Shown here: piece by piece, positions 8,536 through 52,590 of the stretch | Layout: each line of letters begins with the position of its first letter | Numbering within the stretch: position 1 is the stretch's first letter | Assembly (NCBI GenBank): GCA_963736115.1 | Contig: CAVTNR010000008.1 | Location: 128,001-192,000, forward strand | Source: an uncultured bacterium | GTDB lineage: Bacteria > Zhuqueibacterota > QNDG01 > DTFT01 | Direction: 5' to 3' | Length of the DNA: 64,000 nucleotides | Notes under the pieces: generated by a model | Seen by the model: only the letters and a program-made list of their open reading frames with translations | Databases searched by the model: none | Told to the model about the DNA's origin: nothing | Made by a program: the position numbers and the translations under genes

Positions 8536-8613
8536 TAGACCGGTTTCGGGTTGAAAGGTTGCATGTTATTTTTTTGCGCGGGAAATGCAACCTTCCGGCT
8601 TTTCGCCGGTCTA
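8536..8613. promoter_or_regulatory. two divergent matching ECF promoters
   Basis: TGCAACCTT-N11-CCGGTCTA on minus (8563-8536) and plus (8586-8613). Confidence 0.75.
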
Positions 8614-8670
8614 TTCATACAGAGACGCAGAGATCGAAAGTAATCGTTCATTCAAAACAAGGAGACCGAC

Positions 8671-9060
8671 ATGGATCATTTTGAACTCACTCCCGTTCTC
8701 GTGATGGGCGTCATTTTCTGGGGGATCATCGCCATACTCCGCGAAGTGTCCCAGAACAAACTGCGGCACCGCATCGTGGACAAGGGCATGGACCCGGCTG
8801 AAGCCAGCGCCCTGTTCCGCAGTGCCTCGGTCGCGCCCCGGTGGACCAGTCTGAAATGGGGAATGGTGTTGACCGGCATCGGACTCGTGCTCCTGATCGG
8901 CCAGCTGATCCCCGCGGATGTTTCGGAGGAGGCGACGATCGGCGCCATGATGGTGGCTGCCGGCCTGGCCCTGCTGGCGTTTCATTTCGTGATGAGCAAG
9001 GCTGTCGCCGCTTCGGACAGCATCGAACCGGCCGGCAAGGCGGAAAGCCGGAAACGGTAG
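8671..9060 (+). CDS. membrane protein, DUF6249-like
   Basis: TM..RHRIVDKGMDP..SLKWGMVLTGIGL; AAGGAG RBS; divergent from the ECF sigma. Confidence 0.78.
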   Translation: MDHFELTPVLVMGVIFWGIIAILREVSQNKLRHRIVDKGMDPAEASALFRSASVAPRWTSLKWGMVLTGIGLVLLIGQLIPADVSEEATIGAMMVAAGLALLAFHFVMSKAVAASDSIEPAGKAESRKR

Positions 9061-9176
9061 GATGATCAGCTTCGACGCACCTGAAAGGTGCGTCGAAGAT
9101 TCTTTTTGCGCAAACCCGCAGAAAAAAAGCGGAGAGGATGAGATCCTCTCCGCTTTTTGCTGTATCTCAGATCTTG

Positions 9177-9398
9177 TCAGGACTTCTGTTTCTTCGGATT
9201 GAACTGAATCGTGTAGAAGACGCCCATGATCAGCAGAAGAACACCCCACCAGATGCCCGCATGCAGTTCGTTCAGGACCACCGGATTTTCGGGGGGATTG
9301 AAGTATCCGTAAATGCCGGCGCCCAGGATCATGACTCCGTACACGTCCAGGAGCAGTCCGATCGCGAACCAGATCGAAAACAGTTGTTGTTTCGCCAT
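9177..9398 (-). CDS. small two-TM membrane protein downstream of the symporter
   Basis: 73-aa ORF, two hydrophobic helices, RBS-like GGGTGAG. Confidence 0.7.
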   Translation of the reverse strand: MAKQQLFSIWFAIGLLLDVYGVMILGAGIYGYFNPPENPVVLNELHAGIWWGVLLLIMGVFYTIQFNPKKQKS

Positions 9399-9407
9399 GT
9401 CTCACCC

Positions 9408-11210
9408 CTACCAGAAAATGATGTTCAGGATCACGAAGATCACGGCCACGACGCCCGCCCAGAAGATGGAACGCTTGTAGAACGGGAAATGGCCTTCCGA
9501 CGGAATCACGGTCTGGCCGTAGACCAGGCCGGTCAGTTCCTTGTCCGGTTTGGGTTTGGTCAGCAGGCTGACCACGACGGTGACGACCACGCAGATCACC
9601 CAGCACCAGAGCGCGCGGTACATGTTTTCGGCCATGTCCGAAATGGGCATTGTCGGTATGACCGTTCCGGCCGGAGCCGAAGCCTTCAGGGCCATCCAAT
9701 CCTGCATTTTGCCGTGCGCGGACGGAGAGAAGGCCATGTACGCCAGAAACGAGGCGTCCACGAACTTCACCCAGGCCCACATCCCGATCGACGACAGCGT
9801 GCCCGCGAGCAGTCCCCAGAATCCGCCGGCCGGGGTGGCCCGCTTCCAGAGCATGCCGAGGATCACCGTGCCGAACAGGGGCGCGATGAAGAAGCTGAAA
9901 AGCGCCTGCACGTAGTCCATGATGCTCTGGAACTGCATGACGAGATAGGCGGTGCCGATGCTGACCAGCACGCCGAGCAATAGTGCACCAACGGCCGACC
10001 TTCACGTAGTGCTGATCGCGATTTCTGCTTGGCCAGCGGACGGTAGATGTCGTAGGTCCACACGGTCGCGAACGCGCTTACGTTGCCGGCCATGCCCGAC
10101 ATGAAGCCCGCGATCAGCGCGGTGATGCCGAGGCCCAGCAGTCCGGGCCCGCAGTACCGCGCGAGCATGAGCGGGAGCACCTCGTTGTAGCTGTGGCCGC
10201 CGGTCGCGATCGCCTCCGCTTCCCCGACCAGCTTGAAGGGCAGAACACCGAGGCCCAGGAGTCCCGGAAGAATGACGATGAACGGGACGCACATCTTGAA
10301 CGCCGCGCCGATGATCGGCGCCAGCTTGGCGGATCGCAGGTCCTTCGCGGTCATCACGCGCTGGACGACCAGGAAGTCGGTCGTCCAGTAACCCATCGAG
10401 ATGATGGCGCCGAGGCCGAATACGATGCCGATCCAGTGGATGCCCATGGGATTGTCCGAGAAGGATCCCATGGTGCGCCAGAGATGGGTGTAGTCGCCGC
10501 CCGGGAAATTCTGGTGGATGCGGGCCACGAGTCCGTTCCAGCCGCCGGTCTCCACGAGGCCGACGATGGGGATCAGCAGGGCGCCGAGCCAGATGAGGAA
10601 GAACTGGAGCACCTCGTTGAAGATCGCGGAGAGCAGTCCGCCGAGCATGACGTAGGCGGCCACGGTGAGCGAAGACACCCAGATGCTGAAATGGATGTCC
10701 CAGCCGAGCACCACTTTCATCACGAGGGCCATGGAGTACATGTTGACGCCGCTCATGAAGACGGTCATGAGACCGAACGAGACGGCCGACAGCCGAGCGT
10801 GCCCCATTGCCGTACCGGAGCTGAAGATAGCCGGGAACGGAATGGGTCTTCGAGATGTAGTAGAACGGCATCATCACCACGGCGAGGAACAGCATCGCCG
10901 GAATGGCGCCGATCCAGTACCAGTGGGTGGCCAGGATGCCGTACTGGTAGGAGGCGGCCGCCCATCCCATCAGTTCGAGGGAGCCGAGGTTCGCGGCAAC
11001 GAAGCTCAGGCCCGCGACCCAGGCGGTCATCTCCCGTCCGGCCATGAAGAAATCCTCGCCGGTTTTCGTGTGCTTCTTGAGCATGACGCCGATTCCGATG
11101 ACCAGCAGAAAGTAGACGACGATGATGAGTACGTCGATGGTACTCATCTTCAGCAGCGACCCGGATGTTCCCAGGTTCGCCGCGGCGCAGAGTGCCAGGT
11201 GACCGATCAT
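9408..11210 (-). pseudogene. sodium:solute symporter, interrupted by about 3 frameshifts (pseudogene or sequencing error)
   Basis: FFMAGREM, YWTTDFLVVQR and TYDIY motifs spread over different frames; shifts near 10795, 10020 and 9980. Confidence 0.85.
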
Positions 11211-20065: not shown

Positions 20066-21247
20066 ATGAATCGTAACAACAACGCTTTTTTTCCCGCACC
20101 CGGCGAGGCGGACAACATTCATTTTCTGAATGTGAATGAGGATGACTGCATGCGGTGCGGCAAATGTGAAGGCGTCTGCCCGACGGGCGCCATCGCGCGA
20201 ACCCTGCCGGAGACTCCCTGGTGCGTTCACCACATCCCCAATCCGGCGGCCTGCATCGCCTGCGGTCAGTGCCTGAAGGGGTGTCCCGAATCCGCGATTC
20301 AGGAGACCGTCTCTTTCATGGATGAAATCCGGCGGAAACTCGCGGATCCGGACGTGGTCACCGTGGCCATGCCCGCGCCGTCGATCCGCTACACGCTGGG
20401 GGAGGCGTTCGGGGACGACGCGCCGCGGTACGAGGCGGGCCGGATGTTCGCCGCGCTCCGGAGGCTCGGATTCGACAAGGTCTGGGACGTTGAATTCGGC
20501 GCGGATCTGACGATTCTGGAGGAAAGCGCCGAACTTCTGGGCCGGATTCGGGGCGAGCTGGACCGGCCGCTGCCTCTCCTGACCTCGTGCTGTCCCGGAT
20601 GGGTCCGTTTCGTGGAAACGTACCATCCCACGCTCATCCCCAACCTCTCAACCGCGCGTTCCCCGGCCCAGATGCTCGGCGTGATCGCCAAAACCAGGGG
20701 CGCGTCGCAGATCGGAGTGAGCGCGGACAATCTCTACACGGTCCAGATCATGCCCTGCATCGCCAAGAAATTCGAGGAATTGAGGATCGAAAACGCGAAG
20801 TCCGGATTTCGGGATATTGACGCCACGATCAATACGCGCGAGCTCATCCAGTGGCTCAAGGACTCGGCCGTGGATTTCGACGTCCTGCCGGAAGAGCAGG
20901 CGGATGATCCTTTCCGCGCATCCACCGGCGCGGCGACCATCTTCGGGGCGACCGGCGGCGTCATGGAAGCCGCGCTCCGCCGCGTGACGGAAGAACTGGA
21001 CGGAAGACCGCTGGAAAACGTGGAATTCCGATCCGTCCGGGGTACCGAAGGGGTTCGTGAGGCGGAAATCACGGCGGGCGGACAGACGTTCAAGGTCGCG
21101 GTCGTGAGCGGCGCGATCAACGCCGGTCCGGTCTGCGCGGCCATCAAGGCGGGAACGTCCCCCTACGCGGCGGTCGAAGTGATGGCTTGTCCGGGCGGCT
21201 GTCTCAACGGCGGCGGTCAACCCATTGAAAAAGAATATACAACTTGA
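20066..21247 (+). CDS. hydA: [FeFe]-hydrogenase large subunit (2x[4Fe-4S] + H-cluster)
   Basis: CMRCGKCEGVCP and CIACGQCLKGCP; L1 TSCCPGW, L2 MPCIAKKFE, L3 EVMACPGGCLNGGGQP; no signal peptide. Confidence 0.96.
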   Translation: MNRNNNAFFPAPGEADNIHFLNVNEDDCMRCGKCEGVCPTGAIARTLPETPWCVHHIPNPAACIACGQCLKGCPESAIQETVSFMDEIRRKLADPDVVTVAMPAPSIRYTLGEAFGDDAPRYEAGRMFAALRRLGFDKVWDVEFGADLTILEESAELLGRIRGELDRPLPLLTSCCPGWVRFVETYHPTLIPNLSTARSPAQMLGVIAKTRGASQIGVSADNLYTVQIMPCIAKKFEELRIENAKSGFRDIDATINTRELIQWLKDSAVDFDVLPEEQADDPFRASTGAATIFGATGGVMEAALRRVTEELDGRPLENVEFRSVRGTEGVREAEITAGGQTFKVAVVSGAINAGPVCAAIKAGTSPYAAVEVMACPGGCLNGGGQPIEKEYTT

Positions 21248-21260
21248 TGCGAGGTCTCTG

Positions 21261-21878
21261 ATGAGTGAAGCCATCAATGAAAAACGGACGGTCACCCGCC
21301 GCGATTTTCTCAAGATATCAGGCGTCATTTCCGCGCTGATCGTGACGGGCATCAAGTCCGCCGCGCACGCGGCGCAGAAGGCGGTTGAAAACTTTCTGGC
21401 GCGGATAGAGGCCGCGTACGCGCAGGATGCCGCAATGCCCCTCCGCAAGTCGCAGGACAATCCGCAGCTGCAGAGCCTGTACGCGGACTTCCTCGGCCGG
21501 CCGCTCGGCGGGATGTCCGAAAGCCTTCTGCATACCAGCTACACGGACCGTTCCTCGGCCGTCTCCGTGGCACGGCCGGGGGCCGTCCGTTCCCTGCCCG
21601 AGTCTCCGGTGATCGAGTCGGTCTATCCGAATCCGTTCAACGCATCGGCTGAAATCGAATTCCGCATATCCGCGCCGGGAATGGTATGGCTCGCGGTTTT
21701 CAACGCCGCGGGACAGCGGGTGCGCTCGCTCGCGGAAGAGCGCATGCCGGCGGGAGACCACCGGATCCGGTGGGACGGAAAGGACTCCTACGGCAGGAGC
21801 GCCCCGTCCGGGATATACATCGCCCGGCTTGTATCGGGATCGCGGACGGCCGCGATCCGCATGACGCTGATGAAATGA
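21261..21878 (+). CDS. hydB: [FeFe]-hydrogenase small subunit with Tat signal, fused to a T9SS/FlgD-Ig C-terminal domain
   Basis: TRRDFLK..AHA; RIEAAYAQD..LRKSQDNP..LY..PLG..LLHT; then YPNPFN..VFNAAGQRVRSL..WDGKD..SGIY..MTLMK. GAGGT RBS at 21251. Confidence 0.92.
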   Translation: MSEAINEKRTVTRRDFLKISGVISALIVTGIKSAAHAAQKAVENFLARIEAAYAQDAAMPLRKSQDNPQLQSLYADFLGRPLGGMSESLLHTSYTDRSSAVSVARPGAVRSLPESPVIESVYPNPFNASAEIEFRISAPGMVWLAVFNAAGQRVRSLAEERMPAGDHRIRWDGKDSYGRSAPSGIYIARLVSGSRTAAIRMTLMK

Positions 21879-21949
21879 TGCCGAATGATGAATCTGACAG
21901 CGAGCGCATTTCCCGGCTTCGCCGGACCAAGCAACCGGATTCTTTCTCA

Positions 21950-22136
21950 TTGAAGGCCCGCGGCTTGTCTTCAACAAGCAGGCATATAATAGCTTGATCC
22001 CGCGCAGCGGGCCGCGGGGTAAGCGAGCGAATATCAGATGTCTCTTCTCTACAGATAGAAGATTCCCCGCCGCTTGCCTTCAAACAGAAGGCATATAATA
22101 GCTTGGTCCCGCGAAGCGGGCGGCGGGGAGCTTCAA
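21950..22136. mobile_element. MITE/PATE-like element, copy 2, with two 44-bp insertions
   Basis: TTGAAG...CTTCAA ends; shared core; both hairpins interrupted (21968-22011, 22077-22120). Confidence 0.75.
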
Positions 22137-22222: not shown

Positions 22223-22669
22223 ATGGACTTCGACTCTTTTATGTCCCGTTATTTCTGGATCGTCCTTCCCGTTTTCTGGGTTCTCATGTGCCGGCTGGTC
22301 GCCCGGATAAGCGGATGGAATGCCCTGGCCGAATCCTACGCGGCCCAGTCCGACGCCACTGGAACGATTCTCCGGTTCCAGAGCGGTTCCTTCCGCTGGA
22401 GCGCCAATTACAGCGGGCTGCTGAATGTCGGAGCGGACAGCAGCGGACTGCACCTGTCCGTGATCATGTTTTTCAAGCCCGGGCATGCGCCGCTGTCCAT
22501 CCCGTGGAGCGACATTCGGGCCGAACCGCATGGCGTGTTCACGCCGGCGGTGCGCCTGACCTTCAGCCGCAATCCGAAATGTCCGCTTTTCATTTCCGGA
22601 AATCTGGCGCAGAGGATCGCAACGATGAGCGGGGGAGGGTTTACGGTGCCGGCGCAAAAGAGTTCATAG
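22223..22669 (+). CDS. membrane-anchored hypothetical protein
   Basis: GGAGGG RBS; N-terminal TM; SGW..LA..Y, GLHL, PLSIPWSDI. Confidence 0.75.
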   Translation: MDFDSFMSRYFWIVLPVFWVLMCRLVARISGWNALAESYAAQSDATGTILRFQSGSFRWSANYSGLLNVGADSSGLHLSVIMFFKPGHAPLSIPWSDIRAEPHGVFTPAVRLTFSRNPKCPLFISGNLAQRIATMSGGGFTVPAQKSS

Positions 22670-33988: not shown

Positions 33989-36211
33989 TTAAGGTGCCAT
34001 TTTCAGCACGCTCCCGCCGGACCTTTCGATTTTTTCCTTGTCCCACAAGTCCGGCCTGAAATTGTCCCCTGTGAACAAATTCATCTGATCCCTGTAATGG
34101 AGGTCCATGACCTGACCGGATTGGCCGGTCGATAGGCAGGATACGGAACGGTCGAAGTCCGAAAGGTCGATGATGAGTCTGGCCGATGGCCCTGAAACGA
34201 TATGGAACTGCGGGCCTCCGGAGGCATGCGCCCAGCCTTCGATGCTCGACATGGATTTACCCATCGGGAACGGATGCGTTTTAAAGAAGTCCCGGAAGGG
34301 CCAGCGTCCCCCGAGCGGATGGTCGAATTGAAGTTCGTGCACGCCTCCCCAGTTCCATGCTTCAGGCTTGTCCCCTTGTTTTTCCTTCATCGCTGAAACC
34401 GCATCGGCAAAGCTTTTCTCAATGACAGCGACATGCGATTTTACGGCCCATGGCCTGGTCAGGCTGTCCTGAAGCATATCGAGGCGCAGGGACGGGATGC
34501 GCATCGCGAGCCCTGCCGCAACAGGAGGGGATCCGACCTGAATGAGGTTCGAACTGAGCCGGTCGAGAAAGGTTTCGGCCAGAGCCGCGGCCGGACTGCC
34601 GGACCGCATGTCGCCGTCCCATGCGGAAAGCAGGCGCAGGCCGGCGGTTTCGACGGAATCGGTGCGCTGAGCGCGGGTCAATGCGGGAAGAGCGAGACGG
34701 ACGAGAAAGGAAGAACGGACGGAGACCGCATCCGCCAGAAGTCTGCGGCTGTCCGAAAGGGAGACCGGCTGGGAATCGGGCCAGACAGCGGAAAGCCTGC
34801 TGAAGCGGGGGAGGGACCGCGAGTCCGGCGGTACGGGCCGGTCGAGGTTTCCGTTGCAGAGAAACCCCGGGGATGTGATCCATACGGTCCGGGAGTCCGG
34901 CTTGTACCGGACCGGACAGCGCCGGAAATGCCGACGCCGCCCTGCGTATCCGCCGCTATCCAGGAGAATCCGGGAAGCCGGAGGCCAGCGCTTTTCGACA
35001 GGAATTCATCCGCGGTGGCAGCCTTATTCATGTTCAGCAGAACCGCGGTCTCGTCGGCAGGCTCCAGGCCGGCCCATTCCAGAACCACGCCTGACATTTT
35101 ACGGCCGGGTCCGGGTGATGGGGGTGCGCGGCAGACCAGGGGGCCTGAGGGCAGGCGACCAATCTCGATTGGAATATCCGGCGCGTTCAGAACGGCCAGC
35201 GTGTCCCTTTTAAGAACCGGCTGTGCAGATTCGTCCCAGGACACTGCGCGCCAGGGTGTCCGCTTTTTCTCCTGAAGGCGAGAAAGCCCAGGCCGTGGAA
35301 CCGTTGTGGCCCGCGAGCACGAGCGGATAACCGGGAACCATGAAGCCGGAGGCCTCGAAATCCGGGCATCGGAGAACGGCCTGATACCAGGGCGAGGGAA
35401 TCTGCACGGCCGAGTTCGCGACAAAAATCAGCAAAGGTCTGCCTGAATAGGTCCGGGGCCCGGAAACGGCAAGACCAAAAGTGCCCATCAAAGGATCCGG
35501 AGTGAGTCCTTCAGGTTCCGGCTTCCGGACAGCCGCGTCCAGCATGGCGAGAAGGCGGTCAGACGGGTCCGCGGGGATTTGCCTGTCTTTGTCCGGCTTC
35601 GGGACTGCGGACAGAGCCTGACGCACGGGTTGCGTGAGCCACCGCGAGTCCGCCTGCCAGGCGAACAGGCGGAGAACCGATATGCAGTCGGCCGCGGTCC
35701 AGGGCTCGAAAGCGGCATTGAGAAACCTGAATTCGACGGGAATACGCGAACCGGACGGGCCGGCGGACGCGTTCACCCCTGCCGCGTACGCGTCCATGAT
35801 TTCAGCGGATTCCGGGGAAAGGGACATGGCCGCTTGACGGGCCGCGTCCGCCAAACCGATTTTCCGCATCAGGCTGTCCACAGCCGCGGCCTCAGGACCC
35901 AGCCATTCGGACAGCCTGCCGGCCGCGGTGCGGCGGGACAGTTCCATCTGGAAAAGCCTGTCCTGGCCAGTCACGTATCCCAGGCTGAAAAAGAGGTCGC
36001 GCCTGGACGAGGCGGCGATCGCGGGCACGCTGTAGCTGTCGCGCGTCACGCGTACTTCAGCGGACAGGCCGGACAGCCGGATTTTCCCCGTGCGGTCCGG
36101 CAGGGACGAAACGACCGTGCGGTAGCCGTTTATGCACAGCAGAAATACACCGGCTCCGGCGATGAGGGCGGTCAGGCATCCGAAGCGGATGCGGATTTTG
36201 GGTCTGGGCAA
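33989..36211 (-). pseudogene. penicillin acylase (S45 Ntn hydrolase) family, multiply frameshifted and degenerate
   Basis: RDSYSVPAI, QDRLFQMEL.RR..GRLSE, ADTQG, WGGVH..HPL, GQSG..HY.DQ across three or more frames. Confidence 0.8.
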
Positions 36212-36512: not shown

Positions 36513-36872
36513 TGGTGGAGACGGTGGGAATTGAACCCACGTCCGAAAACAGAACACCCCGGAATACTACGTGCGTAGCCCTATCATTTGATCTTGCCCG
36601 GGGCACCCAAAGGGCTGGGATCCCAAGGCCAAGTCCGCTGTTGTCTCGCCGGACTTCCGCGGACATGAAGCCGGCCAGCCCGTCTTAAGCGACGCCCCTA
36701 TACGGCCCCGACAGGCGCGGGCCGCGAGGGACGGGTTGCCTATTTAACTAGGCAGCCATGGCATACGAGTAGTTGTTGCCATTTAATCTGTTCCCGGATT
36801 ATTTACCAGGGTCCAGGAACCTGGACACGCATTCCGAGACCTTACTGAATCCGTCGAATCCAGTTCGTCCCC
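36513..36872 (-). ncRNA. ssrA: tmRNA, tag (A)GNNYSYAMAA
   Basis: 5' GGGGACGAACTGGATTCGAC; 3' GTGGGTTCAATTCCCACCGTCTCCACCA; G3-U wobble; tag frame 36780-36748 ending TAG; TTGACA-N17-TAACTT promoter at 36923-36895. Confidence 0.96.
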
Positions 36873-52305: not shown

Positions 52306-52590
52306 TCTCCGGATTCCGGGTTACAGGGGGGGTGTCAACCCCATAAAATGGACCAAGCTATTATATTTGTAAATTATTGAAGGCCCGAAATCTGTTATCG
52401 GGGATCCAGGACTGGGCGGACAATGAAAGGAAGAATGTGACCTTCTGACAGAAGGTTGCCTTTTTCCTGGTTCCGTAGCGATGACGCGGTGCGTCGCCCG
52501 TATTTGGGATTCAGGTTCCGCTGCGAGGAACCAAGCTATTCGTTATTTTTAGTCATTGAAGGCCTCAGCCTTTCATCCTCCGGAAAAAAC

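Follow-up and report, generated by a model that had tools for sequence, protein, structure and literature searches.

A hydrogenase small subunit with a twin-arginine signal and a candidate type IX sorting tag in an FCB-like bacterium

Can both membranes of a diderm cell be crossed by a cofactor-loaded [FeFe]-hydrogenase that carries its two export signals on one subunit? This question is raised by the hydAB gene pair (positions 20066-21878) in a 64,000-nt stretch of DNA from an uncultured bacterium (assembly GCA_963736115.1, contig CAVTNR010000008.1), hereinafter the window, where the small subunit HydB begins with a twin-arginine translocation (Tat) signal and ends with a domain resembling the sorting tags of type IX secretion systems (T9SS). 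We aimed to weigh the following alternatives: the heterodimer could be exported via Tat and then moved across the outer membrane by T9SS, it could stay in the periplasm with its C-terminal domain (CTD) retained, the CTD could be read by some other route out of the periplasm, or the fusion could be an artefact. Tat followed by type IX secretion is the best reading, of which we infer the key step, and the enzyme may act outside the cell.

Organization of the hydAB pair

The pair comprises the following features, given in window coordinates.

20066..21247, + strand: hydA, large subunit of an [FeFe]-hydrogenase, 393 aa (open reading frame (ORF) list and profile matches)
21251..21254, + strand: GAGG, likely ribosome-binding site of hydB, 6 nt 5' of the ATG at 21261
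21261..21878, + strand: hydB, small subunit fused to a C-terminal domain that is probably a sorting domain, 205 aa and stop
21261..21371, + strand: twin-arginine signal peptide of HydB (T-RR-D-F-L-K, a hydrophobic stretch, AHA before AQ as the presumed cleavage site; TIGR01409)
21393..21551, + strand: Fe_hyd_SSU domain (PF02256, E = 4.9e-19, residues 57-109 of the 217-aa numbering; aligns with 1hfe_S and 1e08_D)
21552..21605, + strand: variable Ser/Ala/Pro-rich linker, aligned with the C-terminal tail of Desulfovibrio HydB
21606..21875, + strand: CTD, 90 residues, a seven-strand Ig-like sandwich that opens with YPNPFN and closes with RMTLMK (TIGR04183, PF13860, AlphaFold2, Foldseek)

The mechanical ORF for hydB encodes 217 aa (21225-21878, TTG start at 21225). 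We took the gene as 21261-21878 (205 aa), since the Met encoded at 21261 is the start in 11 of the 15 HydB homologues, GAGG lies just upstream, and the hydA stop codon (21245-21247) is separated from this ATG by 13 nt. A scan for promoters and terminators around hydAB yielded no signal above that of shuffled sequences.

HydA is predicted to be the large subunit of a group A [FeFe]-hydrogenase of the heterodimeric periplasmic type. It matches PF02906 (Fe_hyd_lg_C) with E = 5.8e-81 and reaches 436.1 bits on the NCBIfam group A model TIGR02512 (cutoff 405.95), and its closest solved structure is the periplasmic large subunit of Desulfovibrio desulfuricans (E = 2.2e-120, residues 13-387). A preliminary description of the locus, made from its letters, had listed intact H-cluster motifs, two ferredoxin clusters and no signal peptide, and all three points hold. 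The motifs TSCCPGW, MPCIAKKFE and MACPGGCLNGGGQP, which we take to be L1-L3, are read in the translation, two CxxCxxCxxxCP motifs of ferredoxin-type [4Fe-4S] clusters lie N-terminal to the H-domain (PF00037, two stretches, E = 3.4e-11), and the HydA translation has neither an RR motif nor a hydrophobic N-terminus, so that no signal peptide is seen.

HydB comprises, in a single frame, the Tat signal, the small-subunit domain, the linker and the CTD, with TIGR01409, PF02256, PF13860 and TIGR04183 all matched in the order that had been proposed for it. The signal scores 18.3 bits on TIGR01409 against a cutoff of 16.7 (residues 23-43 of the 217-aa numbering) and falls short of the Pfam cutoff on PF10518 (19.0 vs 22.7); R13, R14 and F16 are invariant in all nine sequences. 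The best solved match to HydB is 1hfe_S (E = 1.7e-17). The Desulfovibrio HydB precursor aligns over residues 5-121 of 123, from the Tat signal onward, and the alignment stops at the 'YP' that opens the CTD. Since the part preceding the CTD can be aligned from one end to the other with the precursor of D. desulfuricans, the small subunit is complete without the CTD, which is an added domain.

Both here and in HydAB of D. desulfuricans and D. vulgaris (PDB 1HFE, 1E08), a large subunit with two ferredoxin clusters and an H-domain, devoid of a signal peptide, is accompanied by a separate small subunit that bears the twin-arginine signal. The preliminary description had likened the pair to the Desulfovibrio enzyme, with HydB ending there soon after the small-subunit domain; the best solved matches of both chains agree with this, and the Desulfovibrio precursor indeed stops at residue 123, where the 90-residue CTD begins in the window HydB. 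The pair also differs from the Desulfovibrio one in that no cytochrome c3-like gene lies nearby and in that the host, by gene content, is an FCB-like polysaccharide degrader. As judged from sequence, it is very probable that hydAB encodes a Desulfovibrio-type heterodimer exported via Tat.

Conservation of the fusion

A word-indexed search produced 17 matches, with PF02256 and PF13860 together in 15 of them (60-100% identity), and with HMMER, in an exhaustive comparison with 1.84 billion representatives, three more clusters at 38-45% identity were obtained, all with an RR motif, a small-subunit domain and a FlgD_ig CTD. In a profile search, the fusion was found in at least 19 clusters among the 120 matches listed; they come from three source collections, and none is functionally named. 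The layout of Tat signal, small-subunit domain, linker and CTD is retained in these clusters at identities down to 38%.

Among species-representative genomes, 177 stretches encode a relative, and the statements on loci made here cover the best 80 of them. Three of these genomes (L001, L002 and L003) hold the fusion. L001 has an intact hydB ORF of 217 codons in the same gene order as in the window. In L002, hydB can be followed as far as a masked run that falls within the last part of the CTD; a frameshift considered for this gene was rejected, the long ORF there stemming from the masked run. In L003, HydB is cut at the contig end; what is left of it shares 93-97% identity with the N-termini of three full-length fusions (P0010, P0013 and P0014). 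Most of the remaining loci encode a single-chain HydA that has the small-subunit domain at its end.

Outside L001-L003, a split HydB with an RR motif was observed only in L013 (8638-10318), from a metagenome-assembled genome of Leptospiraceae, and it has no tag. There, RR motifs are present both on HydA (MELNRRNFLKF...) and on the HydB ORF of 121 codons (stop to stop), which is a different export solution for the same enzyme type.

The same fusion, whose presence in other genomes had been left to a search, thus recurs in at least 19 clusters and three genomes, and a stop or misjoin between the two domains, once named as a possible refutation, is unlikely, as the single frame is retained in independent assemblies and in these clusters. 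The fusion is real and conserved, and the CTD is under purifying selection. Between the window and L001, the ratio of nonsynonymous to synonymous substitution rates (dN/dS) is 0.20 in the CTD, 0.20 in the small-subunit domain, 0.18 in HydA and 0.49 in the linker (one pair with few substitutions). Inside the close HydB clade, the CTDs are 61-94% identical. Between distant HydB clades, identity is 39-41% in the CTD, 52-63% in the small-subunit domain and 11-31% in the linker.

The C-terminal domain and the proposed export route

The preliminary description had named three families to be sought in HydB with hidden Markov models (HMMs), Fe_hyd_SSU, FlgD_ig and TIGR04183. All three are found, the latter two above their cutoffs: TIGR04183 (T9SS type A sorting domain, NCBIfam) scores 26.7 bits vs 23 over residues 133-212, and PF13860 (FlgD_ig) scores 37.4 vs 27 over residues 154-200 (217-aa numbering). 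The CTD also matches the CTD region of the PorU model itself (E = 4.7e-7). An AlphaFold2 model of the CTD alone, built from 42 aligned sequences, has a predicted local distance difference test (pLDDT) value of 96.4, with strands at residues 2-9, 14-21, 25-33, 38-47, 50-56, 69-77 and 80-88 of 90. With this model, Foldseek retrieved the CTDs of PorU (template modelling (TM) score 0.71) and PorZ (TM 0.61), the Ig domains of FlgD (TM 0.62-0.67) and the CTD of NucA caught in the T9SS translocon (8glk_D; TM 0.63, 26% identity). In comparisons of the sequence profile with solved structures, the FlgD Ig domains come first (E = 3.6e-9), and similarity to the solved T9SS CTDs is weak, from 4.9e-4 for PorU to marginal values up to 0.5 for the others. 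Thus, fold and sequence put the CTD in the FlgD_ig/T9SS-CTD superfamily without telling the two apart. A model of the whole HydB has a mean pLDDT of 52.5, with 26-37 in the linker, and gave generic Ig matches only; a complex prediction of HydA with the CTD alone scored 0.12 vs a mark of 0.32, a value that weighs neither for nor against binding.

Like the T9SS type A CTDs of RgpB, PorU and PorZ of Porphyromonas gingivalis and of NucA of Flavobacterium, the HydB CTD comprises about 90 terminal residues folded in a seven-strand Ig-like sandwich, passes TIGR04183, and has a Gly in the loop between strands beta3 and beta4 and a basic residue in beta7. This glycine, Gly36 of the CTD model, is invariant (42 of 42 sequences); the residue in the middle of beta7 is R85 in the window and K in the consensus, and K90 is the final residue. 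In P. gingivalis, both the loop Gly and the basic beta7 residue are needed for secretion, according to the accessible part of PMC11285876. Specificity of CTDs for their species can also occur (PMC11285876).

The profile of the tag matches 205,422 representatives at E <= 0.001. It stands at the very C-terminus behind unrelated modules (propellers, cohesin, nuclease-like and others) in 17 of the 20 proteins scanned, the other three being HydB fusions. In a set of 181 carriers other than HydB, 150 begin with Met, and the N-terminus of 78 of these 150 is Sec-like when judged by a crude measure of hydrophobicity. An RR motif together with a hydrophobic N-terminus was seen in two of the 150, neither being a good fit to the consensus. 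Hence, the combination of a Tat signal with the sorting tag is almost unique to HydB. FlgD_ig units also recur in tandem inside proteins, a single protein having as many as 19 matched stretches.

In each HydB clade, the CTD is 46-57% identical to tags on unrelated proteins vs 38-49% to the CTDs of other HydB clades, the comparison set having been picked by similarity to these CTDs. This is the pattern expected if the tag follows the sorting machine of its host. A tree of 79 CTDs, including every third non-HydB one (60 of 181), is poorly resolved, with two of its 76 inner branches starred; the HydB label takes three changes, which is compatible with one fusion event as well as with several.

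We read the CTD as a sorting tag because of its exact C-terminal position, the invariant loop Gly, the basic beta7 residue, and the occurrence of the same tag at the end of unrelated proteins of the Sec-exported type. The extra domain had been described earlier as a T9SS/FlgD-type sorting domain; HMM, fold and terminal position all point to the T9SS type A class, and we consider it likely that the HydB CTD is a sorting tag of this class.

The tag is also observed on other redox proteins, namely DUF362 iron-sulfur proteins, C_GCAxxG_C_C proteins, dioxygenases and multicopper-oxidase fragments (Atlas clusters; P0210, P0217). In one Fibrobacterota-labelled Atlas cluster of tagged DUF362 proteins, a Tat signal is present in 17% of members. 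The Atlas scores for the tagged redox proteins are all under 0.8, hence these are leads only; cofactor enzymes with a sorting tag may form a class.

If Tat is followed by type IX secretion, HydA would receive its clusters in the cytoplasm and bind pre-HydB, and it would then be carried into the periplasm via the twin-arginine signal of HydB and Tat, as is expected for the family. A type IX-like outer-membrane translocon would recognise the CTD and move the folded heterodimer, with its cofactors loaded, to the surface of the cell. At the surface, the tag would be either cut off, with the enzyme anchored or released, or retained as a tether, and H2 production or consumption would take place beyond the outer membrane. 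The whole chain, from Tat to type IX-like export across the outer membrane, has in our estimate close to an even chance. We propose only tentatively that it represents the first cargo to pass via Tat and then T9SS, a cofactor-loaded heterodimer with iron-sulfur and H-clusters that would ride the two signals of one subunit through both membranes, so that an FCB-like lineage would possess an [FeFe]-hydrogenase at its outer surface or beyond it.

Several observations weigh against this chain. PF18962 (Por_Secre_tail of Pfam) stays under its cutoff on HydB (17.6 vs 27), and the fold leaves the function of the CTD unsettled, because its sequence is closer to the FlgD Ig domains than to the solved T9SS CTDs. 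The tail of Desulfovibrio HydB, which matches the stretch preceding the CTD here, presumably packs against HydA; if so, maybe little free linker is left for the sortase. Pfam scans of C-termini revealed no other sorting-tag end in the remaining 46 window ORFs, signal-peptide-bearing glycosidases included, hence heavy use of the tag by the host is not demonstrated. A narrow HMM for the HydB CTD likewise detected no further carrier in the window or L001-L003, a result of low weight as about 50 genes were sampled. None of the T9SS, tat and hydEFG genes was found in the 48 window ORFs scanned (those of at least 80 aa) or in the flanks of L001-L003; a small TatA could escape the window scan, since ORFs under 80 aa were not included. 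No electron partner or cytochrome c3-like gene is encoded near hydAB.

The described cargo points the same way: in the accessible parts of PMC9251779 and PMC11285876, T9SS cargo enters via Sec, whereas the signal of HydB is a Tat one and the window cargo would be a heterodimer with iron-sulfur clusters. A 2023 review of T9SS effectors has no mention of Tat, twin-arginine or cofactor (PMC10202324). The labels of relatives suggest FCB-group affinities of the host rather than a definite phylum. The named LigA relatives are labelled '[bacterium]' (61-66% identity) and KSB1 (59%). In favour of the chain are the KSB1 label, the NCBI label of the nearest labelled CTD relatives ('T9SS type A sorting domain-containing protein [Candidatus Latescibacterota bacterium]'), the place of both KSB1 and Latescibacterota among FCB-group taxa in taxonomy records, and the possible occurrence of T9SS in several FCB phyla outside Bacteroidota, as stated in the accessible part of PMC11285876.

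If, alternatively, the enzyme is periplasmic and retains its Ig-like CTD, the latter could tether it to the inner face of the outer membrane, bind a PorV-like or other partner, or mediate oligomerisation. The equal constraint on the CTD and the small-subunit domain and the high CTD identity within the close clade are consistent with such a role, as are the strongest solved sequence relatives, the FlgD Ig domains, which are structural modules, and the internal tandem repeats of FlgD_ig units. Moreover, some true T9SS CTDs stay on their proteins (PorU, PorZ and PorA, in the accessible part of PMC11285876), no Tat-routed T9SS cargo was found in the open-access literature, and, as the stretch preceding the CTD corresponds to the tail of the Desulfovibrio protein, the CTD may lie against HydA. 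However, the CTD has the hallmarks of a sorting tag (exact C-terminus, PNPF start, invariant loop Gly, basic last strand), and the same tag terminates many unrelated exported proteins of the Sec type. Besides, the CTD diverges more than the small-subunit domain between distant HydB clades, and the clade CTDs are nearer to unrelated tags than to other HydB CTDs, in a set chosen by CTD similarity. We regard a purely periplasmic enzyme as rather unlikely.

Another alternative retains the tag but not the canonical machine: the CTD could be read by a divergent or partial system, or direct loading into outer-membrane vesicles, the enzyme leaving the periplasm by an undescribed exit. It is favoured by a host that is not Bacteroidota by its LigA labels, by the better score of FlgD_ig than of PF18962 on the tag, and by the lack of T9SS genes among the window ORFs scanned. 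Nevertheless, TIGR04183 is above its cutoff, CTDs observed in the T9SS translocon match the tag in fold, several further FCB phyla reportedly have T9SS genes (accessible part of PMC11285876), and the data contain no pointer to another machine; such a route is improbable. An artefact, be it a misjoin, two genes read through as one or a remnant in decay, to which the masked run inside the CTD end of L002 and the poor first model of the whole protein might point, is hardly credible given the single frame in at least 19 clusters from three collections, the intact L001 ORF in the same gene order, the purifying selection on the CTD and the confident CTD-only model.

To our knowledge, known bacterial hydrogenases are cytoplasmic, membrane-bound or periplasmic. 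Tat-dependent exoproteins of Pseudomonas aeruginosa take type II secretion as their second step and have no C-terminal tag. Their two-step route, with folded export via Tat and then passage through the outer membrane (accessible part of PMC4899797), resembles the one proposed for HydAB, but no hydrogenase is involved. The extracellular [NiFe]-hydrogenase of corrosive Methanococcus maripaludis strains also acts outside the cell and is held on its surface (accessible part of PMC11452385); in contrast to HydAB, it is archaeal, belongs to a cell with a single membrane and no outer one, and is anchored by glycosylation with no T9SS tag. Bacterial H2 exchange outside the cell has so far been ascribed mostly to leaked enzymes, and a dedicated trait only to an archaeon, in the accessible parts of the literature. 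The hook-cap protein FlgD shares the Ig-like PF13860 with HydB and, of all solved structures, has the best E-values both by sequence and in Foldseek. However, HydB has no N-terminal FlgD region at E <= 1, no flagellar gene is present in the window, and the HydB domain is terminal and tag-like. HydB as a FlgD-type protein was rejected: only the Ig-like part (residues 154-200) matches, with no flagellar context.

The preliminary description knew of no characterised example, and none has come up: searches of the open-access literature (supplements lie outside this scope, so that a table entry in a study of metagenome-assembled genomes could have been missed) brought up neither a tagged hydrogenase nor a Tat-routed T9SS cargo among the papers listed. 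No report was found there on Latescibacter with type IX secretion or on a FlgD Ig-like domain with T9SS, and a Tat review and a T9SS effector review mention no such cargo. The hydAB fusion is real and conserved, and it joins two known modules in a way that has apparently not been described. A T9SS that accepts a Tat-exported, cofactor-loaded complex is not considered in the accessible parts of T9SS and Tat reviews (PMC9251779, PMC11285876 and PMC10202324 among them). If Tat export is indeed followed by type IX secretion, T9SS cargo would extend to Tat substrates and hetero-oligomeric metalloenzymes, and H2 turnover would be placed outside a diderm cell, whose genes would then encode a route for exchanging H2 with partners, cathodes, metals or minerals. 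From the tag boundary, a specific C-terminus of mature HydB is predicted, and the clusters, at least 19 in number, are a ready sequence set.

Genomic neighbourhood and related loci

The window encodes glycosidases, peptidases, two-component systems, LigA and a tmRNA. Judged by this gene content, the host is a polysaccharide-degrading FCB-like bacterium, and nothing here marks a sulfate reducer. No ORF with two or more CxxCH motifs, as in multihaem cytochromes, was found in the 64-kb window, and no functional neighbour of hydAB is conserved across the window and the flanks of L001-L003. Thus, while the Desulfovibrio layout and the T9SS sorting-type domain of the earlier interpretation stand, the roles it proposed in syntrophy and at mineral or metal surfaces find no support at the sequence level, neither a multi-CxxCH ORF nor a conserved partner gene being seen. 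The downstream ORF at 22223-22669 was set aside, since its family is a widespread hypothetical one without ties to hydrogenases.

Downstream of hydB (21913-22128), two 63-nt direct repeats (21957-22019 and 22066-22128) are 87% alike and have complementary GC-rich ends, and a 52-nt inverted arm lies beside them at 21913-21964. The repeat core AGGCATATAATAGCTTG is restricted to these repeats, apart from one site with three mismatches at 52354-52370. The repeats could be an element resembling repetitive extragenic palindromes or miniature inverted-repeat transposable elements, or a pair of terminator hairpins.

No rRNA genes are present in the window, the only such landmark being the tmRNA gene at 36513-36872 (- strand; 186.8 bits with Rfam), whose tag peptide is GNNYSYAMAA. 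Two other genes have an unusual structure. The ORF at 35210-36211 (- strand) covers only positions 1-241 of the 675-position penicillin amidase model, and the gene looks truncated. At 8611-11210 (- strand), a 402-aa ORF covers no more than positions 1-83 of the sodium:solute symporter model and adjoins a 464-aa ORF with no family match; this region may be a frameshifted or very divergent transporter.

In L003 (7130-10222), hydAB is situated directly behind a transposase (DUF772 and DDE_Tnp_1) in a sugar-transport and uptake region, with HydA 77% identical to that of the window. The GC content is 49% over this locus vs 62% around hydAB in the window; together with the transposase, this hints that the hydAB cassette moves between lineages. 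Finally, the predicted 4122-aa protein P0037 comprises seven tandem H-domains of [FeFe]-hydrogenase, every one accompanied by a small-subunit domain, and then flavodoxin and FAD-binding domains; it represents either a giant polyprotein or an error of gene prediction.

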